Shown here: piece after piece, positions 1-21,465 of the stretch | How positions within the stretch are numbered: position 1 is the stretch's first letter | How the letters are laid out: every line of letters begins with the position of its first letter | Source: Candidatus Electronema aureum | GTDB taxonomy: Bacteria > Desulfobacterota > Desulfobulbia > Desulfobulbales > Desulfobulbaceae | Assembly: GCA_004284765.1 (NCBI GenBank) | Contig: NQJD01000039.1 | Coordinates: 1 to 22,726, forward strand | Direction of reading: 5' to 3' | DNA length: 22,726 bases | The notes under the pieces: generated by a model | Database searches by the model: none | What the model was told of the DNA's origin: nothing | Seen by the model: the letters and a program-made list of their open reading frames with translations, nothing else | Position numbers and translations under genes: made by a program

Positions 1-476
1 ACCCTGGTCGTGGCAGATGAAGGCACGTGGACGGTGAATGCAACAACAGGCGCGATCACCTTCACCCCGGAATCAGGCTTCACCGGCGACCCGACACCGA
101 TCACCTACACCGGCGAAGACGTGCAGGGCAATGTCTCCAATCCGGCGACAGTGACCTTGAACACCAACCCGGTGGCGAGCGACGACACGGACAGCTATAC
201 TCCGACTGTTGCCAAGACGGTGGACGTTCTGGCGAACGACACCGCCGGCGACAAGATCGTGGCGGCCACGGTGAAGATCACCACCGCAGGCGCGGCGGCG
301 GACGGCAAGACCCTGGTCGTGGCAGATGAAGGCACGTGGACGGTGAATGCAACAACAGGCGCGATCACCTTCACCCCGGAATCAGGCTTCACCGGCGACC
401 CGACACCGATCACCTACACCGGCGAAGATGCGCAGGGCAATGTCTCCAATCCGGCGACAGTGACCTTGAGTCATAC
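1..476 (+). repeat. Near-identical intragenic direct repeat. Units are 1-167 and 310-476, with a period of 309 bp (103 codons).
   Basis: The string accctggtcgtggcagatgaaggcacgtggacggtgaatgcaacaacagg... is present at nt 1 and nt 310. Only a few substitutions are visible (e.g. gaagacgtgcag vs gaagatgcgcag). Similarity ends at accttgaac / accttgagt. Confidence 0.9.
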
Positions 477-3027
477 CACTCCGACCTACGCACTGATTAG
501 CTCCTTCAAGGCGTATGTCAATGGGGACAAACAGACCGTGCTGGAATGGAAAACGGATAGCGAAGTTGGCACCATCGGTTTTCTGCTCGAAAGGTTAAAT
601 GAGCAAAGTGGCGAATATGAGTCGGTGACTCAAGACATGCTTCCGGGTATGCTTACCCCACCGCATGGTGGCACCTACCGCTTTGTTGACAAAGCGGCAA
701 TATCCGGTAAAAGCTATACATACCGAGTGATTGAAGTTGCGGTCAACAGTGAGGGTACGATTTCTGGGCCATACACAGTTCAGGCCAAGCAGCAGTTGCC
801 AGTCAACCAAGCTATGTTTGCTGACGGCCCGGAAGGATTCACCTTAGCCCAAGAGCGTCTCTCTACCAAGCAAGTACAACGCGTTGCGGTACGAGAGCAA
901 GCAGAGCAAAGTTTCTCTGCACAAGTAAAGAAAAAAACCGGTAAGGTATTGAGAATACCCGTGAGTAAAACCGGACTGGTTTCACTGACTGCTGATCAGA
1001 TCGTCGCAGCATCTGGCCTGAAGAAACAGCAGATTGTGCAAAATCTGAAGGCCAAAAAATGTTTGGTGACGTTACAGGGAAAACGAATTCCTACCCTGTT
1101 TGCCAGCGAAGGCGGTGCGCTTTGGTTCTATGGCCAAGCTCCGGCCAGAAACGATATCGGGCAGAACATCTACCGGCTTGAAATAGGTATGCAAGGTTCT
1201 GTGATGAAAGTAAATCCGCAATCAGATAACGACAGCGGTCACATCTACAGCGAGCAGTCTTTTGCTGACCGAGTAAAGGCTGAAGAAAATCATCTGCCTT
1301 TCCATCTCTATATCAACAAACCTGTGAAAGATTTCTGGGCTTGGGAATATTTGCTGGCCTCAGGAAAAGATTTTACGGTGACTCATTCCCTTGCCGCACC
1401 GAACATGTCAGGCAGTGGCAGTGCGGCAGTTGCGGTTAATCTGGTAAATATCTCCAGCCGCAATTTAGGGACTTCAGCGCCGTATAAGGTGACGATTTTC
1501 TTGAATGGTACTGATATCGGTGGAGCGGAAACCACTGCAACCGGAGATTGGCAAATCAGGAAAGAAGTGCCGGTGAGCTTGCTCCGAGAAAGCGGTAATG
1601 AGGTAAAAATTGTCTCGCAGCTGAACAGTGGGGTATCCTACTCATTGATTTATCTTGAATCCATTGAGCTGGAGTACCTGCGGAAATATCAAGCCGTGCA
1701 AGGCGAGCTGACTTTCAAGAGCGGCCATTCTAACCAAGTGACTGTAGAAGGCTTCAGCAGCGATACTGTGCTTGCACTTGATGTAACCAATCCTGATAAA
1801 CCGGTGCGGATGCGTCCGACGATTCGCCAAACGGAGTCTGGTAGCTATGCAGTGATGGTTCAGACAAAACCCAACAGCAGCTATTTCATCACCGAGAAAA
1901 CAGCGGCGACAGTGTCGCAAACAATGACCGTTGACACGCCTTCTCAGTTGCGCAGCGGCAAAAATCGGGCCGATTATCTCTTGATCGCACCGCTGCACCT
2001 GATCGACTCAGCTAAACGGCTAGCAGAACGCCGTCAGAGCCAAGGTTTGACCAGCATGGTTGTTGATATTCAAGATGTACAAGATGAATTCAGCTATGGC
2101 TTGGCGGCACCGGAGGCTGTGCATGATTTCTTGGCCTATGTGCATCAAAAATGGGAACAGGCTCCTCGTTATGTGGTACTGGTCGGAGACGGCTCCTATG
2201 ACTACCGCAATCATCTTGGCTACGGCTGGCCGCTGATACCCAGCGTGTTGGTCGCCACGCCGGAAGGTTTCTTCCCCAGTGACAACGCCTTGGCGGACGT
2301 GGTTGGCAATGACGGTCTGCCAGAATTCGCTGTAGGCAGAATTCCAGTATTTGACAAAGCTGAATTTGAGCAGTACATTGACAAAGTAATCAGCTACGAA
2401 CAGTCTGTTCATAACGGTGTCCAGAAGATAGCGGTTGTGAACGACAAGACTGACAAGGCGGCTGGTGATTTTAAAGCCAGTGCCAACTTAGTGGCCGGGT
2501 TGATGCCGGAGCAGGTTGCTGTTACTCGTTTGGATGTTGATACGCTGGGATATAGTGCTGCGGCTGACCAGATCAAAACAGCCATGCAGCAGGGAGTCGG
2601 CATACTCCATTACATCGGACACAGTTCCTTGATTGGACTTGGCAAAAGCAACTCGCTGCTGTCAGCAAGCAAGATTGATACGATGAATCCAGTCGGCCCA
2701 GCTATGCTGATGGTCAGCATGAGCTGCTCGGCAGCTAGTTTCGGTTATCCGGCCATGAATAGCATTGGCGAAAGCGCAGTGTTGCGGGCAGAAGGTGGAG
2801 CAGTCGGTTTCTTTGGCGCAACAGGTTTGTCTCTGAATCCGTTAGCCGACATCGTGACAGAAGGTTTCTATCGTAGTCTGTTTAAACCAGTAAGTCCTCG
2901 TGTCGGTGATGCAGTGCTTGAGAGTAAACGGCATTATCTACAGGTTAAGCAAGGAAGAGATGCTTATACCCTTGATATTTACAACCTGCTTGGTGATCCC
3001 GCTGTGCAGATGCCGACTCATCAGTAA
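1..3027 (+). CDS. Large surface/secreted protein, 5'-truncated by the window edge. It has tandem ~103-aa adhesin-type repeats, an Ig/FN3-like region and a C-terminal peptidase C25 (gingipain-like) domain.
   Basis: The frame is open to nt 1: codons 1-9 (TLV) continue the repeat seen again at 310. The repeat [39 protein letters not shown](V/A)[12 protein letters not shown] occurs twice, and the spacer has the cadherin/VCBS-like motif DVLANDT. The C-terminal part (YLLIAPLHL...[15 protein letters not shown]...LHYIGHSS...MSCSAASFG...LLGDPAV) resembles the C25 fold with His and Cys in the expected contexts. Stop is at 3025-3027. Confidence 0.75.
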
Positions 3028-3036
3028 AGTACATGT

Positions 3037-3075
3037 GATAGCCCCGGACGAGTGATTTCGTCTGGGGGGGCTATC
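3037..3075 (+). terminator. Strong GC-rich hairpin directly after the C25-protein stop. It is a possible transcript boundary but lacks a U-tract.
   Basis: gatagcccc (3037-3045) pairs with ggggctatc (3067-3075), and gacg (3047-3050) pairs with cgtc (3059-3062). The loop is agtgattt. The hairpin is followed by atcaataaagc rather than a T-run, so intrinsic termination is uncertain. Confidence 0.4.
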
Positions 3076-3103
3076 ATCAATAAAGCAAAAAAGGTGAAAA
3101 GAG

Positions 3104-3406
3104 ATGAATGTACAGTCCACAGATGTATTCCGCCGTGCAGACAACATCGTCACCCGTAAGGTGATGGATGAAACCCTGTTGGTACCTGTTTCTGGCGAGC
3201 TGGCTTCAATGGATAATCTGTACACCTTGAATGAGACTGGAGCTTTCATCTGGCAGGCAATCGACGGCACTCGCAGCTTGGCCGAAGTCGGCAAAATGCT
3301 GGAGGATCGGTATGATGCTCCGACAGAGGTGATTGAAGCAGATATGTTGGAGATTGTCAGTGGACTATCAGAAGCTGGTCTGATTATGCCTGTTACCAAT
3401 GCATAA
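3104..3406 (+). CDS. PqqD-family protein, a RiPP recognition element (peptide chaperone).
   Basis: The ~100-aa size fits the family. The pattern is typical of PqqD/RRE proteins: VTRKVMDETLLVPV...LYTLNETGAFIWQAIDGTRSLAEVGKMLEDRYDAP...IEADMLEIVSGLSEAGLI. It lies immediately upstream of a small peptide ORF and a radical SAM gene. An SD-like aaaaggtgaaaagag precedes the ATG. Confidence 0.85.
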   Translation: MNVQSTDVFRRADNIVTRKVMDETLLVPVSGELASMDNLYTLNETGAFIWQAIDGTRSLAEVGKMLEDRYDAPTEVIEADMLEIVSGLSEAGLIMPVTNA

Positions 3407-3423
3407 AAAGAGGGGGAAGAGTC

Positions 3424-3582
3424 ATGCAGAAGAAGGAAGTACAGCAGCCAGAGACGGAGCAAAACAAACGGCATTACGAAAAGCCTTCTTTGTCTGCTGT
3501 TCGGTTGTTTGCAGATATGGTTTTGCAGGTGTGCGGAAATGATACGTGCGGCCCGCCGTATCCTGATATGAGTCCAAGTTGA
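3424..3582 (+). CDS. Candidate RiPP precursor peptide 1 (52 aa).
   Basis: It is absent from the ORF track because it is under 60 aa. ATG 3424 is preceded by the purine-rich SD-like agagggggaagag. It has 52 codons, and the TGA at 3580-3582 overlaps the TTG at 3579. Translation: MQKKEVQQPETEQNKRHYEKPSLSAVRLFADMVLQVCGNDTCGPPYPDMSPS. It shares a collinear motif, Y-E-x-P-x-L-x4-LFAD-x-VL, with the peptide at 4770. It sits between the PqqD and rSAM genes. Confidence 0.7.
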   Translation: MQKKEVQQPETEQNKRHYEKPSLSAVRLFADMVLQVCGNDTCGPPYPDMSPS

Positions 3583-3593
3583 TTATAAATTTA

Positions 3594-4757
3594 ATGAAAA
3601 AGAAATCAGATACGGAATCTTCAGATTGTCTTGGCGGCGAACCAAACGATATCGCTCGTTATATTGCCAAGGCAGCAGAAGTTCGTGTTCCGCTGGCGGT
3701 TTCGTTTGAGCTAACCCGACGATGTAGTTTTCGTTGTGTTCACTGTTATCTTGGTGATCAGGAATCGATCCGTAAACACCGGCAGCAAGAGATGGATACT
3801 ACGTCAATCATCAAACTGATTGATGAAATGGCATCAGCAGGTGTTCTGTTTCTGACGGTGACCGGTGGTGATCCGATGATCCACCCTGATTTCTTAGAAA
3901 TTTATCGTTATGCAGTTCGCAGTGGCTTATTGGTGACAGTCTTCTGCAACGGCTCGCTGATCACCGATGAAATTGTTAGCACGTTCATTCAATACCCGCC
4001 AAGAGCGGTAGAAGTGACGTTGTATGGGGCAAGCCAAGCAACTTTTGAGGCAGTGACGCAACAGCTTGGTTCCTTTGCTGCTTGCATGGCAGGTGTGGAG
4101 AGGTTACGACAGGGTAAGGTACGGTTGCGGCTAAAAACGATGGTGTTGACGTTGAATCAAGCTGATCTACCGGTTCTTTGGCAGCGCGCTGAGGCAATCG
4201 ATGTGCAATTTCGGCATGACTGCTCGATCATCCCGGCTTTGGCCAACGGCGATAACGGTAGTCACAGCAATGCCGGAGATAATCTGCACGACACATTGCG
4301 CTTCCGGCTTGCGCCGGAGCAGGCGGCAGCGGCTGATTTGAGTATCACCCAAGTGAGAGAAAAATTACAGGAACGGGTTTGCATGGCTGCCCCGACAGAG
4401 ACAGGACAACCGTCAAGCAAACTCTACCGCTGCGGCGCAGGCCGGTCATCTTGTCACATTACGCCGTATGGAAAAATGCAGCCCTGCCTGATCACCCTCC
4501 AGCCTTCTTTTGACATTACCGCAGGCAAGGAAGCGTTTCAGGCAGCTTGGCAGAGCATCAGCAGGCTGATTCCTGAGCAGGAAGCGGGAGCGGGTTTCTC
4601 CTGCAACCGCTGCAAGGACAGATCGCTCTGCACGGGTTGTCCAAGCAATTTTTCAGCAGAAACAGGCAACGCGGAACAGGCTGCGGATTTTTATTGCCAG
4701 TATGCCGCCAGCCGCAGAGAAAAATCCGCAAGCCACGAAGCGGCAGTATCATCATAA
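3594..4757 (+). CDS. Radical SAM enzyme with a C-terminal SPASM-type auxiliary Fe-S domain (peptide-modifying maturase).
   Basis: CSFRCVHCY matches the CxxxCxxC radical SAM motif, and VTGGDPMIHPDF is GGE-like. The C-terminal cysteine clusters YRCGAGRSSCHITPYGKMQPC and FSCNRCKDRSLCTGCP are typical of SPASM domains. The start is ambiguous: ATG 3594 (MKKKSD) or TTG 3579, which overlaps the precursor stop. Confidence 0.9.
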   Translation: MKKKSDTESSDCLGGEPNDIARYIAKAAEVRVPLAVSFELTRRCSFRCVHCYLGDQESIRKHRQQEMDTTSIIKLIDEMASAGVLFLTVTGGDPMIHPDFLEIYRYAVRSGLLVTVFCNGSLITDEIVSTFIQYPPRAVEVTLYGASQATFEAVTQQLGSFAACMAGVERLRQGKVRLRLKTMVLTLNQADLPVLWQRAEAIDVQFRHDCSIIPALANGDNGSHSNAGDNLHDTLRFRLAPEQAAAADLSITQVREKLQERVCMAAPTETGQPSSKLYRCGAGRSSCHITPYGKMQPCLITLQPSFDITAGKEAFQAAWQSISRLIPEQEAGAGFSCNRCKDRSLCTGCPSNFSAETGNAEQAADFYCQYAASRREKSASHEAAVSS

Positions 4758-4769
4758 CCAAGGGAAAAA

Positions 4770-4937
4770 ATGATGAAAGAATTGAACAGTAATGTTGAGT
4801 TAAGCAAAGGTAAAGGCGAGAAGGTGCCTTACGAAAGTCCTCAACTCAAAGTAATCAAATTATTTGCTGATCAAGTGTTAGGTGGTAGCTGCTTCGGCTC
4901 AGTGGTGGATTGCGGCGGTTCTAAGGATCTTAGTTAA
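4770..4937 (+). CDS. Candidate RiPP precursor peptide 2 (55 aa), a paralog of the peptide at 3424.
   Basis: It is absent from the ORF track. The ATG at 4770 has an SD-like aagggaa just upstream. It has 55 codons and ends at TAA 4935-4937. Translation: MMKELNSNVELSKGKGEKVPYESPQLKVIKLFADQVLGGSCFGSVVDCGGSKDLS. The leader motif and its spacing match peptide 1 (Y to LFAD = 10 residues in both). It has two Cys and a C-terminal Ser. Confidence 0.7.
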   Translation: MMKELNSNVELSKGKGEKVPYESPQLKVIKLFADQVLGGSCFGSVVDCGGSKDLS

Positions 4938-4983
4938 CCAGCTCACTCAAGAAGATAACCTGAACGTGTATCGACAAATAGAT

Positions 4984-5856
4984 ATGCTATTAGGTGGTTT
5001 TTCCATTAAAATAATGGATGACAGTAATATTCCATGCAAGCAACATCACTTGGTAGATGTTTTTTCATGTCCCGTTAAAAAGAAAAATGTTCTTTGTCAG
5101 GCTATAGAGCTTTCGCTTAAGGAGCTGATGCAAATCAACTTTCCTGCCAGCGAGAGGAATATATTATATGCAGACTGTAGGGTGACTCTCTGTAGAACAG
5201 AAACAGATTCATTCAGGCTTTTATGCCTGAATGAATCTGGAAATGACACATTGTGGAATCTAAATTTTGATTCAAATTTTTCTCAATTTGAATACGGCCT
5301 TTCCCACGAAGCAATAGAACAGGGCGACCTTATTCAATTAGCTTTTAATCGGTTTCTTCTTCAGCATACCTTCATCAATCACCACGGCCTGATCATTCAC
5401 GCCGCAGGTGGTTCTATTCACGGCAAGGGCATGGTCTTTCCCGCCGTCTCCGGCACTGGCAAATCAACACTCAGCCATCTGCTGCTGCCGCATCCTGAAA
5501 ATCAGCTTTTCAGCGAAGAGCGGATCATCATGCGCCGGACGGATGACGGTTGGCATTTGTGGGGCACTCCGTGGAAAGGAACCGGCGTGATCGCCCGCAA
5601 TGAATCAGCACCGCTGAATGCCTTAGTTTTTCTCAGTCAGGCCCCGGAAACAAAAATCTCAAAACTGCCGCCCTCCGCCGCCCTCCGCCGTCTGCTGGAG
5701 ACGGTCTCCATTCCTTGGTACAGTCAAGAGTGGACCGACAAGGGCCTATCCGTCTGCGAATCCCTGCTGCGCGACATTCCTGTATTTGAGCTGGCATTCC
5801 GTCCTGATCAAACTGCGGTGCAAGCCGTGGCTGATTTAGCTGCTTCATTAGACTGA
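4984..5856 (+). CDS. HPr kinase/phosphorylase C-terminal-domain-like P-loop protein (putative peptide Ser kinase).
   Basis: HAAGGSIHGKGMVFPAVSGTGKSTLSHLL resembles the HprK P-loop region (G-x-S-G-x-G-K-S). The ORF-track start (GTG 4882) would overlap the precursor-2 gene. The first ATG after that gene's stop is 4984, but the true start is uncertain. Confidence 0.7.
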   Translation: MLLGGFSIKIMDDSNIPCKQHHLVDVFSCPVKKKNVLCQAIELSLKELMQINFPASERNILYADCRVTLCRTETDSFRLLCLNESGNDTLWNLNFDSNFSQFEYGLSHEAIEQGDLIQLAFNRFLLQHTFINHHGLIIHAAGGSIHGKGMVFPAVSGTGKSTLSHLLLPHPENQLFSEERIIMRRTDDGWHLWGTPWKGTGVIARNESAPLNALVFLSQAPETKISKLPPSAALRRLLETVSIPWYSQEWTDKGLSVCESLLRDIPVFELAFRPDQTAVQAVADLAASLD

Positions 5857-5873
5857 GCGAGCATTCGAGGTCG

Positions 5874-6356
5874 ATGAGCCACTCGGTTATCGGTATTCGC
5901 GAACCCGGCGCATTAGATTTAGTGCAGTCCCTACTTCGGCAGGGTTTTAGTGTTCACATCCGAGTTTCTGGTGACTCCATGAAGCCGCTGCTTCGGGGTG
6001 GTGAGCTTGTTGAAGTGGCACCTTTAAGAGATGCCCGTCCCAAACTTGGCGATATTCTTTTTGTCCGCAGTCGTCAAAACACTCCGCTTGTCCATCGCTT
6101 AATTTGGCGACGTAACCAAAACGGCATTTCTCACCTATTGACCAAGGGTGATGCCTGTGCAGGTTTTGACGGTTTTATTCCTGCGAACAAGGTGATAGGC
6201 CGCGTTGATCGGATTATAATTGCCGATCAAAAATCAATCAGCCTGCAAGTACCGCTGATGCGGCTACGAGCTGTTTTGTCTGTCAGCCGTGTTTTACTTG
6301 CTCATGCTTGGCGCAAATTGAACGCCTATAAAAAAGAATACCCGCCGAGTATATAA
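5874..6356 (+). CDS. S24/S26-family serine peptidase (signal-peptidase-I/LexA-like fold). It is a putative leader peptidase.
   Basis: SGDSMKPLLRGGELVEV matches the catalytic-Ser motif G-x-S-M-x-P of S24/S26 peptidases. A downstream LLTKGDA supplies a candidate general-base Lys. SD gagg lies at 5867-5870. The gene is 17 nt after the preceding gene. Confidence 0.7.
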   Translation: MSHSVIGIREPGALDLVQSLLRQGFSVHIRVSGDSMKPLLRGGELVEVAPLRDARPKLGDILFVRSRQNTPLVHRLIWRRNQNGISHLLTKGDACAGFDGFIPANKVIGRVDRIIIADQKSISLQVPLMRLRAVLSVSRVLLAHAWRKLNAYKKEYPPSI

Positions 6357-6361
6357 CTTCC

Positions 6362-6391
6362 TTGCAATTTTTGCATGTTCTGTCTTATCAT
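6362..6391 (+). promoter_or_regulatory. Sigma70-like promoter candidate for the gene at 6434.
   Basis: ttgcaa (6362-6367), an 18-nt spacer, then tatcat (6386-6391). It lies in the AT-rich gap between the peptidase stop and ATG 6434. This is pattern only. Confidence 0.3.
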
Positions 6392-6433
6392 AGAATCTAT
6401 GAAAAATATTTTAACTCTCACGGAAAAACAAAC

Positions 6434-7825
6434 ATGAAAAATCAAGCTGAATGCCACTTTTCTTGGCTTGTAGCCATTCTGTTCGCTGCGCTTTCCATTT
6501 TTCATCCTCTGACGGTGAAAGCGCAGGTGTCGTCCGGTACCATAACAGGCACCGTGACGACTGTAGATACAGTTCCTCTGGCAAGTCTGGCGGTGGGTGT
6601 GTACCGTGCTGATGATGAAAGTACTCGGCTGAAAGCCGTACGGACAAACACTGCGGGTATTTTTACGCTGACGGGTCTGCCAGCGGGTAATTATAAAATA
6701 AAATTCTTCACTACTGGTATTAATTATGTCGGAGGATGGTATAAGCAAAATACTTCCCCTCCAGCCTCAGCGGTAGCCACATTTGGCGAAGGTAATATCA
6801 TTACGCTGACCTCAACAGCCGGAGCTGATGTAGGGGAGACACGACTTGATCTCGGTTTGCAGATCAAAGGAAAAGTGAATGATACCTCCTCGCCAAGTAA
6901 TCCTATTGCTGGAGTCTATGTTCAGGCATATCGCAACGGAGTTTGGGAAAGAACTTCTGATGCTGCCACCATCATTGCTGATGGCTCATACATCATTAGC
7001 GGCCTGAGAGCAGGTGACTACACCATACGTTTTTGGGCGTATCAAACCAGCTATACTACGGAATGGTATTCTTCAACTACTCCAACAAACACTGTTCCTG
7101 ATGCTACCAGTGCTGCTTCTGTGGCGGCAGGGAGTATTAACATAAACGCCCAGCTATCTACAGGCGGTAACATTCTTGGCACGGTTTACGATAAGACAGG
7201 GACGGTACCTGTTGTCGGCGCATTAGTGACTGTTTATGATAATGTATCTCCTTACACGTTTAGAGGCTTCACCACCACGTTAGCAACAGGCACATACACA
7301 GTGCGAGGTCTTCCTCTTACAGGAAATTATCTTGTCCAGTTTTATGAAAAATATGTCAATAACGTGGGGACGGGCCTAACTGAATGGTACAACGATAAGT
7401 CTGATAGGGCCAGTGCAGCGGCTGATTTTGGCAGTGTTGTTGTCATTAACCAAGCAACAGGATACATCGACAATATTAATGCTACGCTTGATCGTGGACC
7501 TATTTCTGGCAAGGTCACCTACAAGACAGGCTCGCCTGTCGTAGGCATGTTGATTAGTGTATATGACAGCAATCAAGTTTTGAAACTATCTACAACCACC
7601 GATACCAAAGGACAGTATATCACTGGGGAACTGCCCGCAGGAACTTATAAAGTGCAGTTTGGTACTGCCAGTTGGTATAATGGAAAAGATAATTTTAACG
7701 AGGCTAATGCAGTGCAGGCGGGAGCTGCTGGAATCAATGCTATCATAGAACAGCCGACACTCCTCTTCCATGTCTACAATATCCTCCTTATGAAAAAACA
7801 TTGCACGGCAGCTGATTGCCAATAA
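6434..7825 (+). CDS. Secreted protein with four carboxypeptidase-regulatory-like / Cna-B-like beta-sandwich repeats.
   Basis: The start at ATG 6434 gives a signal-peptide-like N-terminus (MKNQAECHFSWLVAILFAALSIFHPLTVKAQV). There are four ~100-aa repeats of the type G(T/K)V...G.PV.GA.V.VY......T...G.Y...GLPAG.Y.V.F....Y..EWY. The longer ORF-track start (6362) lacks any support. Confidence 0.7.
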   Translation: MKNQAECHFSWLVAILFAALSIFHPLTVKAQVSSGTITGTVTTVDTVPLASLAVGVYRADDESTRLKAVRTNTAGIFTLTGLPAGNYKIKFFTTGINYVGGWYKQNTSPPASAVATFGEGNIITLTSTAGADVGETRLDLGLQIKGKVNDTSSPSNPIAGVYVQAYRNGVWERTSDAATIIADGSYIISGLRAGDYTIRFWAYQTSYTTEWYSSTTPTNTVPDATSAASVAAGSININAQLSTGGNILGTVYDKTGTVPVVGALVTVYDNVSPYTFRGFTTTLATGTYTVRGLPLTGNYLVQFYEKYVNNVGTGLTEWYNDKSDRASAAADFGSVVVINQATGYIDNINATLDRGPISGKVTYKTGSPVVGMLISVYDSNQVLKLSTTTDTKGQYITGELPAGTYKVQFGTASWYNGKDNFNEANAVQAGAAGINAIIEQPTLLFHVYNILLMKKHCTAADCQ

Positions 7826-7852
7826 TCTCGTTTCACTTATTTCTACAGATTT

Positions 7853-7889
7853 ATGCTGGTAGGATATTTTCCTATCAGCATATTTTTTT
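7853..7889 (+). terminator. Rho-independent terminator.
   Basis: atgctggtagga (7853-7864) pairs with tcctatcagcat (7870-7881) at 11 of 12 positions. A run of seven T follows at 7883-7889. Confidence 0.7.
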
Positions 7890-7911: not shown

Positions 7912-9801
7912 ATGATTGATTTCGACATCGCCGTCATTGGCGCGGGCCATGCAGGCTGTGAGGCCGCACTTGCCGCCGCCCGCATGGGCTGTACAACCTT
8001 AGTCTGCGTGATCAACGCCGACACCATCGGGGCTATGTCCTGTAATCCGGCTATCGGCGGCCTTGCCAAAGGCCATTTAGTCCGCGAGATCGACGCGCTG
8101 GGCGGTGAGATGGCGAAAAACATCGATGCCACCGGCATTCAATTTCGTCGGCTCAACACCAGCAAGGGACCAGCAGTGCGTTCCTCCAGGGCGCAGGCGG
8201 ATCGACGGCTCTATCAGCAGCGAATGAAGACCGTGCTGGAACATCAGCCGAATTTAGTCATCCGCCAAGCTGTGGTAGATGAAATCCTCACCGAGCAAGG
8301 CCGAGTCACTGGCATTCACACCTCGTTAGACGAGATTATTCCGGTGCGGGCCGTGGTGGTGGCCACGGGCACCTTTCTCAATGGGCTGATTCATATCGGT
8401 CTGAAGAACTTTCCCGCCGGTCGGATGGGCGACGCACCCTCAACCAAGCTGGCACAATGGTATCGCCACATTGATTTCAACGTAGGCCGGATGAAAACCG
8501 GCACTGTGCCGCGATTAGACAGTAAAACCATCGACTATTCTGGCTTAGAGCCGCAATACAGCGACGATCCGCCCGTGCTTTTCTCCTTTGCCAACCGCAA
8601 GCGGCAGACCCCAGAGCTGCCCCAGCTGCCCTGTCACATCACCTACACCAATGAGCAGACGCACGCGATCATTCGCAGTTTCATTAGCCAGTCGCCGCTG
8701 TATGCAGGAATTATCGAAGGGGTAGGGGCGCGTTATTGCCCTTCAATTGAAGACAAGGTGATGCGCTTCCCGGAAAAAGGGCGGCACCAAATATTTCTTG
8801 AGCCGGAAGGCGTGGAAACAGCAGAGGTCTATCCCAACGGTATTCCCACCAGTTTGCCGATTGAGGCCCAGATCGCTTTGGTGCATTCTATTCCTGGCTT
8901 GGAAAACGCACGAATCATCCGGCCTGGCTACGCGATTGAATATGATTACGTTGACCCGCTGGAGCTAAAGCCCTCACTGGAAACCAAGCGGATCAGCGGT
9001 CTTTTTCATGCTGGCCAGATCAACGGCACTTCTGGCTACGAAGAAGCCGCTGCGCAGGGCCTGATGGCAGGTATTAACGCGGTTCATTTTGTAAGAGAGC
9101 AAGAAGCACTGATTCTTGACCGCTCGCAGGCCTATATTGGCGTGCTGATCGACGATCTTGTCACCCTTGGCACTAAAGAGCCGTACCGTCTCTTCACCTC
9201 TAGGGCCGAATACCGCCTGCTGTTGCGCGAAGACAACGCTGATTTGCGCCTGCGCGACATTGGCTTTCAGATTGGACTGGCTGACGAGCAGGAAAAGCCG
9301 GAGTTTCTCGCCCGCAAAAAGGCGATTGAGGAAGGGCTGGTTCAGTTAGAACAGCTTCGCATCAAGCCGTCCGCAGCGGTAAATGCGTGCTTGAGCGAAT
9401 GCAACAGTACGCCGCTCACCCAGACGATGACGTTGACCGAATTACTGCGTCGGCCTGAAATCGGCATGATTGATCTTTGCCATTTGGCGAAACTGAGTGG
9501 GATTAAACCACCTCTGCCTGAAGAAGACCCCAGCGTTGCCGAAGAAATTGAGCTACATATCAAATATTCTGGCTATATCAAACGCCAGCAGGAACAGGTT
9601 GACCGCTTCCGCAAGTTAGAGCGCACTCGCCTGCCGGAGGATATGCAGTACAAAGGATTGCCCGGCCTGTCTAATGAAGTGGTGGAAAAGCTGAACCGAA
9701 TCAGACCGATGTCGTTGGGACAGGCATCGCGTATCTCCGGCATCACCCCAGCGGCGGTATCTGTACTTCAAGTGCATTTAAAAAAGATGGGTCGCCTTTA
9801 A
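7912..9801 (+). CDS. mnmG: tRNA uridine 5-carboxymethylaminomethyl modification enzyme MnmG (GidA).
   Basis: The N-terminal FAD fold is [23 protein letters not shown]. The characteristic motifs [35 protein letters not shown]-like ([12 protein letters not shown]) and [19 protein letters not shown] are present. The 629-aa length is typical. Confidence 0.97.
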
Positions 9802-9930
9802 TTCGCAATGACGGGCATTTCTCCCTTGCAGACAGCAGCTTCTGAGCATATAACAAAAGAAAGAGGACAGTCTGCTGCCGTACTATAGACATCTTTCATG
9901 CTGTTAGCATTACTGAAAAAGGGAAGAAAT

Positions 9931-10227
9931 ATGCTAAAGAAAAGTTATACCGCCACAGGGAAAAAATGCCGAGTCACGTTTCACTATCCCAACCATGAGC
10001 AGGTCGCTTCAGCTGCCTTGGCAGGTGAATTTAACGGCTGGTCTGTGACTGAAACCCCGATGCACTTGCTGAAAACTGGAGTTCTTTCTATCAGCGTTAC
10101 CTTAGATGCGGGCCGAGAATACGCCTTCCGCTATGTGTTAAACGGCCAGCACTGGGTGAACGATCCAGAAGCGGACAAGTACGTGCGCAATGAATTTGGC
10201 GAAGAAAATTCGGTAGTGGTAGTGTGA
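9931..10227 (+). CDS. Small CBM48 / AMPK-beta glycogen-binding-domain-like (isoamylase N-terminal-like) protein.
   Basis: KCRVTFHYPNHEQVASAALAGEFNGWSVTETPMHLLKTGVLSISVTLDAGREYAFRYVLNGQHWVNDPEA fits the E-set/CBM48 pattern (GxFNxW ... Y.FrY.vdG.W..Dp). ATG 9931 has SD gggaag. The ORF-track start at 9898 is less likely. Confidence 0.7.
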   Translation: MLKKSYTATGKKCRVTFHYPNHEQVASAALAGEFNGWSVTETPMHLLKTGVLSISVTLDAGREYAFRYVLNGQHWVNDPEADKYVRNEFGEENSVVVV

Positions 10228-14803: not shown

Positions 14804-15925
14804 ATGGAAAATATTATGAGCCTTACAGAGCAGATCAATAAAAACTCAGCAACGGTAAAGACACAATCGTATTCAATGTCGCTGGGTGAAATGGCTGCGA
14901 TGTACCAAGCCGGTGAACTCGAACTGCACCCAGAATTTCAGCGTTTCTTTCGCTGGACACCTGAACAGAAGTCGCGGCTTATTGAGTCGATCCTGCTTGG
15001 CATTCCTGTGCCGCCCGTATTTGTGGCAGAAAGAAGGTTGGATGCAAAATGGGATGTGATTGACGGGCTGCAACGGCTTTCAACGATATTAGAACTCATG
15101 GGTGAACTTCAAGGAGAAGATGGCAACAAGAAAGAACCGTTGCAGCTCACGCGAACACATTATCTGCCTGATTTGGAGGGAATGTACTGGTCTCATGAAG
15201 ATGAAAGTAAATGCCTTCCAGAGTTTGCTCAGATAAAGATAAAACGTGCTCGTATTGATGTCAATATCGTCAGCAGTACAAGCGATGAGGTGGTGAAATA
15301 CGAAGTTTTTCAACGTTTGAACACAGGAGGCGCAAAGGCGACTGACCAAGAGGTGCGCAATTGTCTTCTTGTAATGATTAATAACAGCTACTTCAACTGG
15401 ATGAAAGGTCTAAGTGAAAATGAATCGTTTCAGAACACTCTCTCGCTGACGGATCGTGCGCTCGCTGAGGCTTTCGACATGGAACTTGTAGCTCGATATC
15501 TCGTCATGATTCAAAAAGAACCAGACAAACTCAAGAAAATCGATGAACTTGGAACGTATTTGAATGAGGAATGTATAGCGCAAGCGAAAGATTCAGCATT
15601 AGACAGGGATGCGATTGCAAAGAGCTTTTTTGAAACATTCACATTCCTTGCGAATGAGCTGAAAGAAAACGCTTTCCGCAGGTTTGATATGAAACGGCAG
15701 TGCTATAGCGGCCCGATGCTTGTTTCAATTTTTGAGGTTGTCGCTGTGGGATTGGGGCATCGGTTGTTGAATGGGGGAGCACTTCCTGACCAAGCCTCTT
15801 TTGCGGAAAAACATCGCTCGTTGTGGGACGAGCTTGGAAAAACATCATTTGTCGGATCGGGTGTGCGTTCCTCAACTCGGATACAAGAGACAATTCGCTT
15901 TGGGCGGGAGTGGATTGCACGGTGA
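14804..15925 (+). CDS. DUF262 (ParB/GmrSD N-terminal-like) domain protein without a DUF1524 nuclease domain.
   Basis: LHPEFQRFFRWTPEQKSRLIESILLGIPVPPVFVAE...WDVIDGLQRLSTILE matches the DUF262 signature (FQR..vW ... DGQQRLTT). VFQRLNTGGAKATDQEVRNCLL is also present. I see no H-x-x-P His-Me finger C-terminal domain. Confidence 0.85.
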   Translation: MENIMSLTEQINKNSATVKTQSYSMSLGEMAAMYQAGELELHPEFQRFFRWTPEQKSRLIESILLGIPVPPVFVAERRLDAKWDVIDGLQRLSTILELMGELQGEDGNKKEPLQLTRTHYLPDLEGMYWSHEDESKCLPEFAQIKIKRARIDVNIVSSTSDEVVKYEVFQRLNTGGAKATDQEVRNCLLVMINNSYFNWMKGLSENESFQNTLSLTDRALAEAFDMELVARYLVMIQKEPDKLKKIDELGTYLNEECIAQAKDSALDRDAIAKSFFETFTFLANELKENAFRRFDMKRQCYSGPMLVSIFEVVAVGLGHRLLNGGALPDQASFAEKHRSLWDELGKTSFVGSGVRSSTRIQETIRFGREWIAR

Positions 15926-16572
15926 AGATTCGAGCCGCACAGGAACTCATTAATTTCCTTAGCGAGAGAAAACAAAATCGTAAAAGGGAGCTGATATCGC
16001 TCTCGCAGGATTTATCGCCGCCAAAGGGCCATCCGACGGCGCATACATGCAAGGCCGCTGTCGTTCTTGCCTATGCTCACTGGGAAGGATTTGTGAAAGA
16101 GGCAGCTCAAGCCTATGTTAATCTTGTGGCCCATAAATCTAAAAGATTAGACGCATTGGCTCTCAGTTTCCAAGCTCTGGTGTTCCGTCAAGAACTACTT
16201 GCAGCCCAATCTGCAACCCGTCGGATACAACAGCATCTGTCCCTTACAAAACGTTTCACTGACGATATCACGTCAAGCTGCAAAATTGATCATGACAGAG
16301 CAATAGACACAGAATCGAATCTTAACGCTGAGGTCTTTGAAAACATCTGTCTATCTGTTGGACTGGACTATCAAACTTACTGGGCTGTGCACGGGCATCG
16401 AATGGATGATCTTGTAGCAAACCGTTGCGCAATCGCACACGGTGAAATGTCGACACCTGAAGATAAATATGCCAGAGAAGCAGTAAATTTCGTTATTAAG
16501 GCTATAGACCAATTCTCAACCGATATCGAAAACGCTGCCACGCTTGAGCAGTATCTCAGGAAAACGAGCTGA
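15922..16572 (+). CDS. HEPN-domain protein (RiboL-PSP / MAE_28990-like family), a putative RNase effector.
   Basis: The start GTG 15922 overlaps the DUF262 stop (gGTGA, 4-nt coupling). The protein is helical and carries the R-x4-H motif in VANRCAIAHGE near the C-terminus. Size (216 aa) and DUF262 adjacency fit that family as I recall it. The ORF-track start at 15823 is an in-gene overlap and is unlikely. Confidence 0.65.
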   Translation: MKIRAAQELINFLSERKQNRKRELISLSQDLSPPKGHPTAHTCKAAVVLAYAHWEGFVKEAAQAYVNLVAHKSKRLDALALSFQALVFRQELLAAQSATRRIQQHLSLTKRFTDDITSSCKIDHDRAIDTESNLNAEVFENICLSVGLDYQTYWAVHGHRMDDLVANRCAIAHGEMSTPEDKYAREAVNFVIKAIDQFSTDIENAATLEQYLRKTS

Positions 16573-16905: not shown

Positions 16906-17312
16906 GCTGCGGCAGCCGTCGGACAGATAAGCCATCCATCGTTCAGGCAGGCCGCGCAGTATTTCCTGCGCCTCGATGCAAACTTGCTGCATGGCGTTTC
17001 AGGCTTGGGATGCGGCATCTGCTGGACAGGCAAAGCAGCCGTATTGCAAATAAACCGCTTGAAATTTTCGCATCTCATGGTAAAAATGATGTGCGGCATT
17101 TCAAATATGCGACGCGGCAGCCGTCGTTCAGGCAGCTTATCTGTCTGACAGACGGGCCGCCGAAATTTCAGCGCAGCGGCGCAAACTTGCTTCAGGGCAT
17201 TCTCAGTTTGCAGCGCGGCATCTGTCGTTCCGATGCGCCGCCGGTCTTTCGGGCCAGCCGCCTGAAGCGCAGGTGCCGCGCCGCAACGCTGAACTGCCGC
17301 ATCTGACTATCC
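16906..17312. repeat. Diverged tandem duplication (2 units of ~203-205 bp) in a GC-rich non-coding spacer. It contains a 15-bp inverted repeat.
   Basis: Three anchors recur at a constant offset: gcggcagccgtcg (16909 and 17114), gcaaacttgct (16978 and 17181) and gcggcatctg (17012 and 17215). gtcggacagataagc (16918-16932) is the reverse complement (14 of 15) of gcttatctgtctgac (17135-17149). Confidence 0.75.
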
Positions 17313-17338
17313 CATCTTAACCGCAGAAGGAGCGCAGC

Positions 17339-17962
17339 ATGGCGACATTTCCTGTCCGCGAGGCGGACATCATGGCACTGGCGCAAAGCATCATCGCCGG
17401 GATGACGGAAAATCCAGATTATCCTTCGCCGCCGCTTTCGCCAACAGAGCTACGCGCCCGGCTGGATGCGTTCAGCGGATCAAGCGACGCGCAGGCATCG
17501 GCCCAGTCTGCGGCGCAGCAGGCCACGGAAACCAAGCGCACGGATTTGGAAGAGCTGATTGCGGGCATGAAGGCCGCCATGCTGCATTATGCCGAAGACG
17601 CGGTGCGCGGCAATGATGCCAAGCTGGCCGCTCTGGGCTGGAGCGGTCGCGCGCCCCGCACGCCGCATGTGCCGCAGCTGCCCGGCCAGCCGCGCAATGT
17701 CAGGGCGCAGCAGCAGGGCGAGGGCAGCATGACGCTGGCGTGGGATGAGGCTGAGAACGGCGACGCTGCTGCCTGTTACAAGGCCGAACGCCGCAGCCTG
17801 AACAACGGCGTGTGGAGCGCATGGCAGATCGTCGGCACAGCGGTCAGCACGAGCATCGCGCTGTCCGGCCAGCCGCGCGGCAACACGCTGGAATACCGCA
17901 TCATCGCCATCAACAACGCGGGCGAAAGCCTGCCGAGCAACACCGCGACGGCAGTGCTGTGA
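17339..17962 (+). CDS. Paralog P2: full-length helical N-domain plus a C-terminal fibronectin type III-like domain.
   Basis: The N-terminus FPVREADIMALAQSIIAGMTENPDYPSPPLSPTELRARLDAF is homologous to P1 and P3. The C-terminus PGQPRNVRAQQQGEGSMTLAWDEAENGDAAACYKAERRS...LEYRIIAINNAGESLPSN is a typical FN3 pattern. SD gaaggag lies upstream. Composition is GC-rich. Confidence 0.8.
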   Translation: MATFPVREADIMALAQSIIAGMTENPDYPSPPLSPTELRARLDAFSGSSDAQASAQSAAQQATETKRTDLEELIAGMKAAMLHYAEDAVRGNDAKLAALGWSGRAPRTPHVPQLPGQPRNVRAQQQGEGSMTLAWDEAENGDAAACYKAERRSLNNGVWSAWQIVGTAVSTSIALSGQPRGNTLEYRIIAINNAGESLPSNTATAVL

Positions 17963-18028
17963 ATTTTTGTGAATTTTTTCCGGCAGAAAAATTTGCAGTC
18001 GAATTATCTGCCCCCTTCTTTTTCGCAG

Positions 18029-18075
18029 AGCACGTGTGCTTTTGCATCTCAAACACACGTGTTTTCATTTTTTAA
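18029..18075 (+). terminator. Hairpin plus T-rich tail between P2 and the methyltransferase gene. It is a terminator or an operator.
   Basis: cacgtgtg (18031-18038) pairs with cacacgtg (18054-18061). The loop is cttttgcatctcaaa, followed by ttttcatttttt. Each arm contains the palindrome CACGTG. It lies inside the unsupported N-terminal extension of ORF 17969. Confidence 0.5.
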
Positions 18076-18088
18076 TTCATCGAGTATT

Positions 18089-18955
18089 ATGCCTTCCTGT
18101 TTAAACCCCATTGAAACATCTGATTCAACTATAAACAATCTCGATGAAAAAAGATGGAGCGTTTACAACGGAGATGCAGTTCAAGTTTTAAAAACTCTTC
18201 CAGATAATTCATATAATTGCATAGTCACTTCTCCGCCGTATTACTGGCTTCGAGATTATGGAACAGATGAGCAAATCGGAAAAGAAGATACTGTAGAGCA
18301 ATACATTTTTTCTGTATGCGCTGTTTTTGATGAAATTTATAGAGTAATGAAAGATGATGGATTAGTTTTTATCAATCTTGGCGACACCTATTATTCAGGA
18401 AAAGGACAATCTCATGGCGTTGACAAAAAGAGCAGAAAAAGACGCTTTGGCTTAAGAGCTGTTGATAAAAGCGGAGGGCTTGATATCGGGATTAAACCAA
18501 AATCATTGATAGGTATTCCTTGGAGAGTCGCTTTGGAAATGATGAAGCGAAATTGGACACTTCGGAGTTCAATTATTTGGTATCGTAAATATTCGCTTCC
18601 AGAATCGGTGAAGGATCGCCCGAAAAGAAGTTACGAACATATATTTATGTTCGTAAAAAATCGTAAATATTATTTTAATCAAAGTGCATTTGGTGCCGAT
18701 GAGCAAGGAGATGTGTGGACAATTGTTCCCCGGCCAAAATCGGCGCACTTGGGAACAGCACCGTATCCCGATGAGCTTGTGCAGCGATGTCTTGATATGG
18801 GTTGTCCGCCTGGCGGTTCGGTTTTAGATCCGTTCGCGGGCAGCGGCACAACCTTGCGTGTTGCTGTGCAGTCCGGTCGTTTTGCCACAGGGATTGATAA
18901 CAATCCAGAATTTTGTCAATTTATGTCTAGTGAATTGCAAAGGATTTCAAAATGA
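18089..18955 (+). CDS. DNA methyltransferase, beta-class N4-cytosine/N6-adenine (N6_N4_Mtase family).
   Basis: Motif IV is IVTSPPYY near the N-terminus, and motif I is VLDPFAGSGTT near the C-terminus. That is the circular permutation of beta-class amino-MTases. The start is taken at ATG 18089. The stop overlaps the next gene's ATG (ATGA at 18952-18955). Confidence 0.9.
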   Translation: MPSCLNPIETSDSTINNLDEKRWSVYNGDAVQVLKTLPDNSYNCIVTSPPYYWLRDYGTDEQIGKEDTVEQYIFSVCAVFDEIYRVMKDDGLVFINLGDTYYSGKGQSHGVDKKSRKRRFGLRAVDKSGGLDIGIKPKSLIGIPWRVALEMMKRNWTLRSSIIWYRKYSLPESVKDRPKRSYEHIFMFVKNRKYYFNQSAFGADEQGDVWTIVPRPKSAHLGTAPYPDELVQRCLDMGCPPGGSVLDPFAGSGTTLRVAVQSGRFATGIDNNPEFCQFMSSELQRISK

Positions 18956-20865: not shown

Positions 20866-21465
20866 ATGATTCCTGTGCTTGAACAGTCTGAACCGGCAGA
20901 CTTTGATGCGAAGGTGCGGCAGAAAGGGCTGGCGTTTCTGCGTAAGAAAGGCATCGCGCTGGATCAGCCTCTTCCGGACAAGGCTGATATTGCCCCGTAT
21001 TGGCGTGACTGTCTTGATGATTTGCATTCACTGTATCATGGCTGCTGCGCTTATCTCGCCATTTTCATCGAGCGTGTCACTGGAGACGCATCTGTTGATC
21101 ATTTCATAGCCAAATCTAAACAGGCTGATCTTGCGTATGAATGGAGCAATTATCGTCTTGCCTGCCTGACGATGAACAGCCGCAAGCGGAACTATGATGA
21201 TGTTCTTGATCCGTTCTCTGTCCAATCTGGCTGGTTTCATCTTGAATTAGTCAGCGGACGCATTTATCCGAATTCTAATTTGCCATCGAACACAAAGAAG
21301 CAGATAGAAGAAACGATCGAACGCCTGCATTTGGATGACGCAGGAAACAGAGAAATACGGTCTCGCCATTATTATGAATATGCTGCAAAAGGATACCCGA
21401 CTGACTATCTCAAAACAAGATCGCCATTTGTTTATACAGAAGCACTGCGGCAAGGTCTTTTGTAA
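20866..21465 (+). CDS. TIGR02646/PtuB-like HNH-type nuclease homolog with a degenerate zinc-cysteine set.
   Basis: The ATG immediately follows the ATPase stop (tgaATG). CCAYLAIFIERVTGDASVDHFIAKSKQADLAYEWSNYRLACLTMNSRKRNYD follows the family pattern C.YCE...(D/I)H..P......W.N...AC..CN..K. However, the second Cys of each pair is replaced (CAYL, CLTM). Confidence 0.65.
   Translation: MIPVLEQSEPADFDAKVRQKGLAFLRKKGIALDQPLPDKADIAPYWRDCLDDLHSLYHGCCAYLAIFIERVTGDASVDHFIAKSKQADLAYEWSNYRLACLTMNSRKRNYDDVLDPFSVQSGWFHLELVSGRIYPNSNLPSNTKKQIEETIERLHLDDAGNREIRSRHYYEYAAKGYPTDYLKTRSPFVYTEALRQGLL

Follow-up and report, generated by a model that had tools for sequence, protein, structure and literature searches.

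What do six closely packed genes of a cable bacterium make, if each of them resembles a building block of a modified-peptide pathway? The genes lie on a contig of Candidatus Electronema aureum, a freshwater cable bacterium (chromosome record OW818638.1, ~2.43 Mb), and the whole stretch analysed, 22,726 nucleotides long, is called the window here. Six co-directional open reading frames (ORFs) occupy positions 3104-6356, all on the plus strand and all at the coordinates given by a first-pass annotation made from the sequence: a PqqD-family protein, two small ORFs, a radical S-adenosylmethionine (rSAM) enzyme of the SPASM type, a P-loop kinase resembling HPr kinase (HprK), and a serine peptidase of the S24/S26 type. 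That annotation read the genes as a pathway for a peptide that is synthesized ribosomally and modified after translation (RiPP), a reading that gains support from the conservation of the gene set and from a precursor gene that is present wherever it could be looked for. The explanation that we prefer, with a probability of roughly 0.6, is a cassette for RiPP-type maturation whose partner is a giant secreted protein, a C25-family peptidase and adhesin. The unit as first drawn was too narrow, since it left out the gene for this protein, which is part of the conserved unit.

The conservation of the gene set was examined with a pattern scan for the rSAM enzyme, one genome being taken per species. 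The scan gave 52 loci, with the rSAM gene as the search anchor of every one, and the other components were counted only over loci with enough flanking sequence. The PqqD gene was found in 51/51 loci, the precursor gene in 50/50, the kinase gene in 49/50, the C25 gene in 48/50 and the S24/S26 peptidase gene in 39/44, and no further gene family was common to more than 14 of 53 related loci. The 52 loci belong to Electronema and Electrothrix, Acidobacteriota (including Vicinamibacteria), Verrucomicrobiota, Kiritimatiellia, Lentisphaerota, Gemmatimonadales, Gammaproteobacteria and Desulfobacterales. The cassette is thereby spread over 52 species-level genomes of at least eight phyla, nearly all metagenome-assembled, to which metagenome contigs of Myxococcota can be added. 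All 13 genomes of Electronema and the Electrothrix group in the set have it. Homologues of the rSAM enzyme are 50-88% identical in all cable bacteria, and about 40% identical in Gammaproteobacteria, Chromatiales and Myxococcota. The cassette is real and strongly conserved, and is neither a fragment of a lasso-peptide cluster nor a chance arrangement.

More distant relatives retain fewer parts. Two such loci (L057 and L058) keep the PqqD, rSAM and kinase genes, the last of the ScmC family, and have no C25 gene. L057 encodes a Cys-containing YxxP peptide that ends in Ser, together with an S26-like peptidase. L058, in which no precursor could be recognised and the sole S24-type match is weak (E 0.002), stands among glycosyltransferase genes beside an MsbA-like ABC exporter. 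Cable-bacterial loci show variations of their own. Eight of them, none a close Electronema relative of the window (Electrothrix where identified; e.g., L008, 3214-3921), have an extra conserved ORF of about 210-235 aa in the interval between the kinase and peptidase genes; it has no Pfam match and is absent from the window. Some cable-bacterial loci also have parts of the cassette twice (L009, 13181-14278; L010, 9788-13566; L016, 9731-10155): an additional precursor gene with an additional kinase gene, an additional C25 gene with a precursor gene, or precursor genes in tandem.

The two small ORFs that flank the rSAM gene, A1 and A2, are homologous, as had been proposed, with 41% identity over the leader (E 8e-7). 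Both match a hidden Markov model (HMM) of the precursor family built from such ORFs, A1 with an E-value of 8e-13 and A2 with 3e-12; A1 reads ...HYEKPSLSAVRLFADMVLQVCGNDTCGPPYPDMSPS and A2 reads ...PYESPQLKVIKLFADQVLGGSCFGSVVDCGGSKDLS. Each is preceded by a purine-rich, Shine-Dalgarno-like sequence, and each is called as a gene in the source genome record. The place of A2, directly 3' of the rSAM gene, is the conserved position of the precursor in nearly all loci, and A1 is a second copy, between the PqqD and rSAM genes, that is specific to Electronema. Among four Electronema genomes the ratio of nonsynonymous to synonymous variation (pN/pS) is 0.37 for A1 and 0.33 for A2, and the leader block has a pS of 0.65-0.74 and a pN of 0.24. 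From this pattern it can be deduced that the small ORFs evolve as coding sequence under purifying selection. The first-pass annotation had proposed looking for homologous loci that lack the small ORFs, and none was found among the 50 evaluable loci.

Residue counts over the 59 distinct precursor peptides of the 52 loci give the consensus PYEKPxhxxhxL..E(T/V)L..GCK..C..(G)S. The leader motif takes the form YxxPx(L/I/V), with YxxP in 58/59 peptides and WxxP in the remaining one, and a Leu ten residues after the Tyr (Y+10) is found in 59/59. At Y+14 there is Glu in 37/38 peptides from outside the cable bacteria and Gln in 18/21 cable-bacterial ones, followed at Y+15 by Thr or Val in the majority. 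Two or three Cys follow the YxxP motif, the first at Y+19 or Y+20 in 57/59 peptides, and the spacing between the first two varies from about 4 to 17 residues. The C-terminal residue is Ser in 51/59 peptides (37/38 outside the cable bacteria, usually as Gly-Ser, and 14/21 within them). Cores of about 20-35 aa differ widely in length and sequence between clades; that of the commonest subfamily, GCKLGSDSGCVGPPxTAxEGGS, is strongly conserved. In sequence databases the precursor family falls into 239 clusters at 90% identity, every one of them unnamed or "hypothetical" and without a Pfam domain, and into 477 representatives at 50% identity, nearly all of 45-80 aa.

Among the related loci the precursor HMM gave no match outside the cassettes. 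The leader profile did match a few large proteins, P0360 (1823 aa, 15 stretches), P0390 (1556 aa, 9 stretches) and P0429 (854 aa, 8 stretches), which were set aside: P0360 and P0429, the two that were read, are unrelated repeat proteins in which SDISHPYKSPEIEGISL recurs many times and most likely resembles PYxxPxIxxIxL by chance. One further match, P0430, is a mis-called fusion of precursor, PqqD protein and kinase.

The PqqD-family protein was correctly recognised at the outset: it matches Pfam PqqD with 63.3 bits against a cutoff of 23.4. It stands alone, and has sub-threshold NCBIfam matches to PqqD, lasso B1, ScmD and the GeoRSP PqqD. The rSAM enzyme was likewise described as carrying a CxxxCxxC motif and SPASM cysteine clusters, and both are there. 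It matches Pfam Radical_SAM with 67.1 bits, the motif CSFRCVHCY provides C49/C53/C56, and seven SPASM-type cysteines are conserved in 20 homologues (C285, C303, C351 and C354 invariant; C342, C345 and C373 at >=90%); the Pfam SPASM model gave no match at E<0.01. The enzyme has no fused recognition domain, its core beginning at about residue 40.

The rSAM gene could in principle have fallen within a clade that does not act on RiPPs, and on this point the comparisons divide. An AlphaFold2 model (pLDDT 88.7) has as its Foldseek neighbours by E-value the peptide maturases SkfB, CteB, PqqE and SuiB, which speaks for a RiPP enzyme, but its highest TM-score, 0.64-0.70, is to the anaerobic sulfatase maturase anSME, which does not. 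The best PDB sequence match is PqqE. The top NCBIfam scores are those of MftC (110.6 bits against a cutoff of 265), AhbD and NirJ2, and the enzyme is below the cutoff of all named maturase families (including AlbA, StsB, PapB, WgkB and SbtM), with 47-111 bits against 180-850. A reading of the chemistry from the structural neighbours was rejected, and no chemistry is concluded for this enzyme, because these neighbours span thioether, C-C and formylglycine enzymes. A thioether is the commonest outcome for rSAM/SPASM enzymes of this sort, and C-C, formylglycine-type or other chemistry is also possible.

The assignment of the P-loop protein as HprK-like held up well. Its P-loop, SGTGKST, is invariant as SGxGK(S/T)T in homologues, and H139, S156, G157, G159, K160 and T162 are invariant or nearly so. 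The best match of the family profile in the PDB is HPr kinase/phosphorylase (E 7.5e-7), over His...GxSGxGKS...DDR, and the aligned segment HAAg..G.G..f.G.SGaGKST...lsDDR matches HprK/P of L. casei (PDB 2qmh and 1jb1); in Electronema the acidic pair is EE. The only significant folds for an AlphaFold2 model (pLDDT 91.3, pTM 0.89) are those of PEPCK and HprK/P, with a TM-score of about 0.5 to the HprK/P catalytic domain. The Pfam family ScmC (PF27840) is precomputed on this kinase and on nearly all of the homologues listed. Alignment with the homologues indicates ATG 4984 as the likely start, with which the overlap with A2 is gone.

The peptidase carries the GDSMKP motif expected of the S24/S26 type, and G33, S35, M36, P38, H74, R75 and D93 are invariant in 22 homologues, among them the putative Ser35/His74/Asp93 triad; G92 and A94, on either side of D93, are nearly invariant. 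The original assignment can be narrowed, as the family profile matches SEC11C and SEC11A best in the PDB (E 9e-10), before bacterial signal peptidase I and LexA, and NCBIfam sigpep_I_arch scores 46.6 bits, just under its cutoff of 51.85. On reading the sequence no N-terminal hydrophobic segment or membrane anchor was seen, and the N-terminus has instead a conserved segment, LVxxLLxQG. By these comparisons the protein is a soluble peptidase of the archaeal/endoplasmic reticulum signal-peptidase-I type and the predicted leader peptidase of the cassette. A link to the nickel cofactor of the conductive fibres of cable bacteria, or to nickel superoxide dismutase (NiSOD), had been suggested by the Cys pairs and by the weak score of the peptidase, 24.2 bits where the cutoff is 63.25, with the model of the NiSOD maturation protease. 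It was rejected as the principal explanation because the family is widespread outside cable bacteria, the Cys spacing is variable and there is no His-Cys N-terminal hook.

A pathway can be proposed from these parts. Two precursors of about 50 aa would be translated, and the PqqD protein, by analogy with the recognition proteins of lasso peptides and of the peptides described below, would bind the YxxPx(L/I/V) leader and present the peptide to the enzymes. The rSAM/SPASM enzyme would then modify the core, most probably at the two conserved Cys, for example by a thioether cross-link. The HprK-fold kinase would phosphorylate a Ser, the best candidate being the C-terminal one, as PadeK does on paeninodin, and the soluble peptidase, if it acts as LppS does, would cut off the leader shortly before the first Cys, at about Y+15/16.

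The closest characterised relatives are the clusters for linear polyphosphorylated peptides (LPPs) of Bacillota, which encode LppA/B/K/S/D/N (Popov et al., Nat Commun 2026;17:6633, PMC13381572). There LppB is a discrete recognition protein, LppK an HprK-like kinase that polyphosphorylates Ser3 of the LPP core (Y+18), and LppS a leader peptidase that resembles archaeal signal peptidase I and depends on the recognition protein. The leader motif is YxxPxVLxHQxIxFETxxS, the cores are variable and 35-200 aa long, and the clusters lie within capsule loci (PMC13381572). According to the authors, signal-peptidase-like enzymes had previously been unseen in RiPP pathways, and LPPs are restricted to Bacillota (PMC13381572). 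The cable-bacterial cassette has the same trio, a recognition protein, a kinase of the HprK type and a leader peptidase resembling signal peptidases, as three of its four enzymes and adaptors. Compared by published residues and not by sequence, the LppS triad S29/H68/D93 corresponds to S35/H74/D93, with a Ser-to-His spacing of 39 residues in both. The leaders share YxxPx(V/L/I), and E-(T/V) stands at Y+14/+15 where LPP precursors have the E-T cleavage site. In both systems the loci lie amid surface-polysaccharide genes and have no macrolactam cyclase.

The differences are equally plain. LPP clusters have neither an rSAM enzyme nor a C25 partner (the word "radical" occurs zero times in PMC13381572), whereas the NTP-transferase LppN and LppD, the MsbA-like exporter of the LPP core, are not among the window ORFs or the families shared by the loci, an ABC exporter being seen in the distant relative L058 only. 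The linear LPPs also have no other core-modifying enzyme in their conserved gene set. The HQ, the Phe at Y+13 and the Ser at Y+18 of LPP leaders and cores are not matched in the precursors studied here, and the short cores of the latter have a C-terminal (G)S and fixed Cys, two or three in number. LPPs are reported from Bacillota only, whereas the present cassette was met in nine groups outside that phylum, of which the genome set accounts for eight and the metagenome contigs for the ninth, Myxococcota.

A second relative is the uncharacterised SynChlorMet cassette (NCBIfam TIGR04248-04251; ScmC, ScmD, ScmE and ScmF), which also has a PqqD homologue, rSAM/SPASM enzymes and an ScmC-family protein; PF27840 covers the kinase studied here, and UniRef names that kinase a SynChlorMet cassette protein. 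The scores, however, are far under the cutoffs (ScmC 25.6 against 125; ScmD 22.3 against 100; ScmE 63.6 and ScmF 68.2 against 400), and there is one rSAM gene here but two in SynChlorMet. An assignment to SCM, GeoRSP, HPr-rel-A, mycofactocin or PQQ was rejected, as all NCBIfam scores are far below the cutoffs. Sactipeptide and ranthipeptide enzymes (SkfB, CteB, AlbA and PapB) have in common with this system a SPASM-type rSAM enzyme, a short Cys-bearing core and dependence on a recognition element. They differ in that the recognition element is here a protein of its own, that the set also includes a kinase and a leader peptidase resembling signal peptidases, and that the rSAM enzyme is under the cutoff of every named maturase family.

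These comparisons bear on novelty. The first-pass annotation knew of no characterised class that combines these parts. For the trio this no longer stands, given the LPP clusters (PMC13381572), and for the combination it is further weakened by SynChlorMet, which already pairs a PqqD homologue and rSAM/SPASM enzymes with ScmC. It does stand for the addition of rSAM/SPASM chemistry to an LPP-like module, for this precursor family and for the C25 linkage, all of which are undescribed in the literature searched. No paper pairing HprK or HPr kinase with an rSAM, SPASM or RiPP/PqqD context turned up in that literature, nor did the searches made return anything relevant for ScmC/SynChlorMet or the CDV28 locus tags. 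The cluster is absent from the cable-bacteria papers checked, and no cable-bacteria paper in the searched literature mentions rSAM enzymes in this context. The system is best filed as an LPP-like module of recognition protein, kinase and signal-peptidase-like enzyme, to which rSAM/SPASM chemistry is added and which is tied to the giant secreted C25 protein.

The C25 gene lies immediately 5' of the PqqD gene in 48/50 related loci, and database gene calls give four-base overlaps of C25 with PqqD (in several loci) and of PqqD with rSAM. Because of this adjacency and these overlaps of stop and start codons, we assign the C25 gene to the conserved unit. Its full-length product in the source chromosome has 4014 aa, with CLIPPER/DUF11, Big_9 and CshA repeats, and the part within the window matches Pfam Peptidase_C25 (246.6 bits) as well as CshA_repeat and Big_9. 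The His871/Cys906 dyad is invariant in 48/48 homologues, and the homologues have N-terminal signal peptides. The closest NCBIfam model is PorU, the sortase of the type IX secretion system (NF033707; 198 bits against a cutoff of 420). Like PorU, the protein is secreted and surface-associated and has a C25 domain with a conserved His/Cys dyad; unlike it, it scores below the cutoff and carries the domain near the C-terminus of a repeat adhesin of 1,200-4,000 aa. Type IX secretion genes were not seen in the window or in the locus annotations examined. In a Myxococcota locus (L003, 2732-7687) the C25 protein ends ...GGCQSVPSVTWWAVALGIFALRYRRKGSQG, which we take to resemble a sorting tail of the MYXO-CTERM type. 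The idea that the rSAM system acts on the C25 protein itself was rejected, since the precursor HMM found no leader-like motif inside any C25 ORF, even at E<=10.

Loci of Verrucomicrobiota, Kiritimatiellia and Lentisphaerota (L020, L023, L031 and others) have polysaccharide-export genes about 2-10 kb 3' of the rSAM gene, encoding a FecR-domain protein, a BBP2 porin, Wza, a Wzz/GNVR kinase, a Wzy_C ligase and an ABC-2 transporter. In loci of these three groups the S24/S26 gene is on the opposite strand. The tight link to a signal-peptide-bearing C25 protein, together with the polysaccharide-export genes, points to a role at the cell surface or in the matrix rather than to a cytoplasmic cofactor.

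Several observations weigh against the proposed pathway. All of its chemical steps are inferred, and the link to the C25 protein is positional only. The S24/S26 gene is absent in 5/44 loci, four of them of the Acidobacteriota type; in one locus without it (L019) a gene of the metallo-beta-lactamase fold adjoins the kinase gene. The LPP phosphosite (Ser at Y+18) is not conserved, and the C-terminal Ser is absent from 7/21 cable-bacterial precursors. The cleavage site is uncertain because the -3 residue of LPP precursors (Phe) is unmatched. The top NCBIfam scores (MftC, AhbD and NirJ2) and the top TM-score (anSME) do not favour thioether chemistry, and there is no exporter or transporter among the window ORFs. 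On the other side, three of the four protein parts have an experimental precedent in LppB, LppK and LppS (PMC13381572).

One alternative is that these enzymes work for the giant C25 protein, with the phosphopeptide in its mature form as a substrate, covalent tag, activator or inhibitor of the PorU-like peptidase, and with the cassette as a system for surface-protein maturation or decoration rather than for a free natural product. We hold this to be possible and put it forward tentatively. It draws on the adjacency across phyla with its stop/start overlaps, on the invariant catalytic dyad, on the signal peptides, the PorU match and the MYXO-CTERM-like tail of one homologue, and on the polysaccharide-export genes downstream in three groups; but the link is one of position, the distant relatives L057 and L058 as well as L018 have no C25 gene, the C25 proteins have no leader-like motif, no export route for the peptide is encoded, and the PorU score of 198 is below its cutoff. 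An extension of the same idea, no less speculative and rather doubtful at present, joins the PorU-like protein and the cassette in one unrecognised cell-surface system. The cytoplasm would be the place where an rSAM-cross-linked peptide with a phosphate on its C-terminal Ser is produced, and the C25 protein would use this peptide outside the cell, either ligating it onto the adhesin or a surface polysaccharide or taking it as a cognate activator or inhibitor. If true, RiPP chemistry would have a part in how surface proteins or matrix are assembled, not in cable bacteria alone but also in Verrucomicrobiota, Kiritimatiellia, Lentisphaerota, Acidobacteriota and further groups. A peptide-derived cofactor pathway like those of PQQ and mycofactocin, in which the rSAM enzyme and PqqD protein cross-link or decarboxylate a few conserved residues (GCK, or the C-terminal Gly-Ser) and the peptidase frees a small molecule that remains cytoplasmic, is in our view unlikely. 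The missing exporter, the strongly conserved core of the commonest subfamily, the discrete PqqD protein beside a SPASM enzyme as in PqqD/E and MftB/C, and the matches to MftC (the best in NCBIfam) and to PqqE (also the best PDB sequence match) would suit it. These scores are nevertheless far from the equivalog cutoffs (for PqqE, 58.2 against 381). MftA precursors end in GVY and PqqA carries E-x3-Y; the precursors studied here end in (G)S and have neither signature. Core length and sequence also vary widely among clades, and the genes nearby encode a secreted C25 adhesin and polysaccharide export instead of dehydrogenases.

Two further alternatives were considered. That the small ORFs are incidental and the rSAM enzyme is an anSME-like maturase of the C25 or another protein would agree with the top TM-scores to anSME and with the lack of a fused recognition domain, yet we consider it very improbable, as the small ORFs occur in every evaluable locus with an invariant motif and a fixed position, are under purifying selection and are always accompanied by a dedicated PqqD recognition protein, and as the nearest structures by E-value are RiPP maturases and the leader motif is absent from the C25 proteins. 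The other is a fragment or degenerate form of a phosphorylated lasso cluster of the paeninodin type. PadeK phosphorylates the C-terminal Ser of the paeninodin precursor (PMC9266682), and clusters with PadeK or ThcoK share with this one an HprK-like kinase, a discrete recognition protein, a [Y/W]xxP-type leader (YxxPxL here) and a conserved C-terminal Ser. The precursors with their discrete RiPP recognition element even fit the lasso leader motif as it has been defined, [Y/W]xxPx[L/V/I/F/A] (PMC13381572). The cluster nevertheless lacks the lasso cyclase, B2 protease, ABC exporter and nucleotidyltransferase, and has an rSAM/SPASM enzyme and an S26-type peptidase instead. As first stated, neither an Asn-synthetase-like cyclase nor a transglutaminase-like B2 protease is encoded among the window ORFs; the sole nearby Asn_synthase signal is a weak match on QueC. 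Homologous loci do not always carry a lasso cyclase, another outcome that had been considered: neither it nor a B2 protease is found among the conserved families of the 53 loci, which share no additional gene family, and no locus encodes such a cyclase. The precursors, moreover, have no Thr at -2 and no Gly/Asp-Glu ring pattern. We regard a lasso origin as extremely unlikely.

Several consequences follow. A widespread precursor family stands without a name or a Pfam or NCBIfam precursor model, in hosts that are almost all uncultured. The trio module, described in 2026 as limited to Bacillota, extends far past that phylum and is joined to rSAM chemistry, for which reason one would expect the product to be both cross-linked and phosphorylated and to represent a new class of peptide. 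Among RiPP classes none is known to us whose genes stand so regularly beside the gene of a giant secreted C25 peptidase/adhesin, and this pairing suggests that the cassette helps to construct the cell envelope or matrix and does not serve antibiosis. Because the cassette also occurs outside cable bacteria, it ought not to be counted among the conduction machinery. The family is experimentally tractable.

The coordinates of the cassette and of the features around it are collected in the table.

Features of the cassette and its surroundings in the window
Feature	Position	Strand	Basis
Giant gene, 3' end, Peptidase_C25 domain at terminus	10-3027	+	Pfam
RNA hairpin between C25 and PqqD genes	3035-3077	+	Fold energy against shuffles
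PqqD-family RiPP recognition element, 100 aa	3104-3406	+	Pfam PqqD
Precursor peptide A1, 52 aa	3424-3582	+	Precursor family HMM
Radical SAM/SPASM enzyme; database gene call from ATG 3594, 387 aa	3579/3594-4757	+	Pfam Radical_SAM
Precursor peptide A2, 55 aa	4770-4937	+	Precursor family HMM
HprK-fold P-loop kinase, ScmC family; longest ORF from GTG 4882, likely start ATG 4984	to 5856	+	PF27840
Soluble S24/S26-type Ser/His/Asp peptidase (predicted)	5874-6356	+	Catalytic motifs, profiles
Secreted CarboxypepD_reg/SdrD_B-type repeat protein, 463 aa gene call	6434-7825	+	Pfam
Terminator-like hairpin and T-run	7852-7882	+	Terminator scan
MnmG	7912-9801	+	–

Both boundaries first proposed for the unit have to be revised. 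The strong hairpin on the left exists, with a folding energy of -27.5 kcal/mol (z -4.9; 0/200 shuffles equally stable), but it does not bound the unit, which extends to the upstream C25 gene. There is no U-tract in the hairpin, the terminator scan did not report it, and it may be a partial terminator or a stabiliser. On the right, the gap at 6357-6433 is present, but a promoter there was rejected as a unit boundary, consensus matches being no commoner than in shuffled sequence (9 found against 6.8 +/- 2.6). The transcription unit likely ends at the terminator-like hairpin past the CarboxypepD_reg gene, where the scan found a stem of 13 pairs followed by TTTTTTT. The same scan listed as terminator-like a perfect 15-bp inverted repeat, CAGATTCATTCAGGC...GCCTGAATGAATCTG, with a T-rich tail at 5204-5239 on the minus strand, inside the kinase gene and antisense to it.

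The CarboxypepD_reg-repeat protein (Pfam CarboxypepD_reg, 106.7 bits) has a signal-peptide-like N-terminus, MKNQAECHFSWLVAILFAALSIFHPLTVKA. Its gene lies downstream of the cassette in 11 cable-bacterial loci, and this co-location is seen in cable bacteria only. The longer ORF (6362-7825) weakly matches TIGR04134, "radical SAM-associated putative lipoprotein" (24.5 bits against a cutoff of 39.8), and the protein has repeat types in common with the N-terminal parts of the Electrothrix C25 giants.

Farther along the window, just 3' of mnmG, a 109-aa protein with a CBM_48 carbohydrate-binding module is encoded at 9898-10227. At 14804-16572 two overlapping genes encode a GmrSD_N-domain protein (373 aa) and, after it, a HEPN protein (RiboL-PSP/MAE_28990-type), and look like a defence gene pair. 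A tandem at 17969-21465 encodes an N6/N4 DNA methylase, an AAA_21/AAA_15 ATPase of 637 aa and a protein of 199 aa without a Pfam match; the drop in GC content from 0.62 (17001-18000) to 0.40 (18001-19000) suggests that this is an acquired island.

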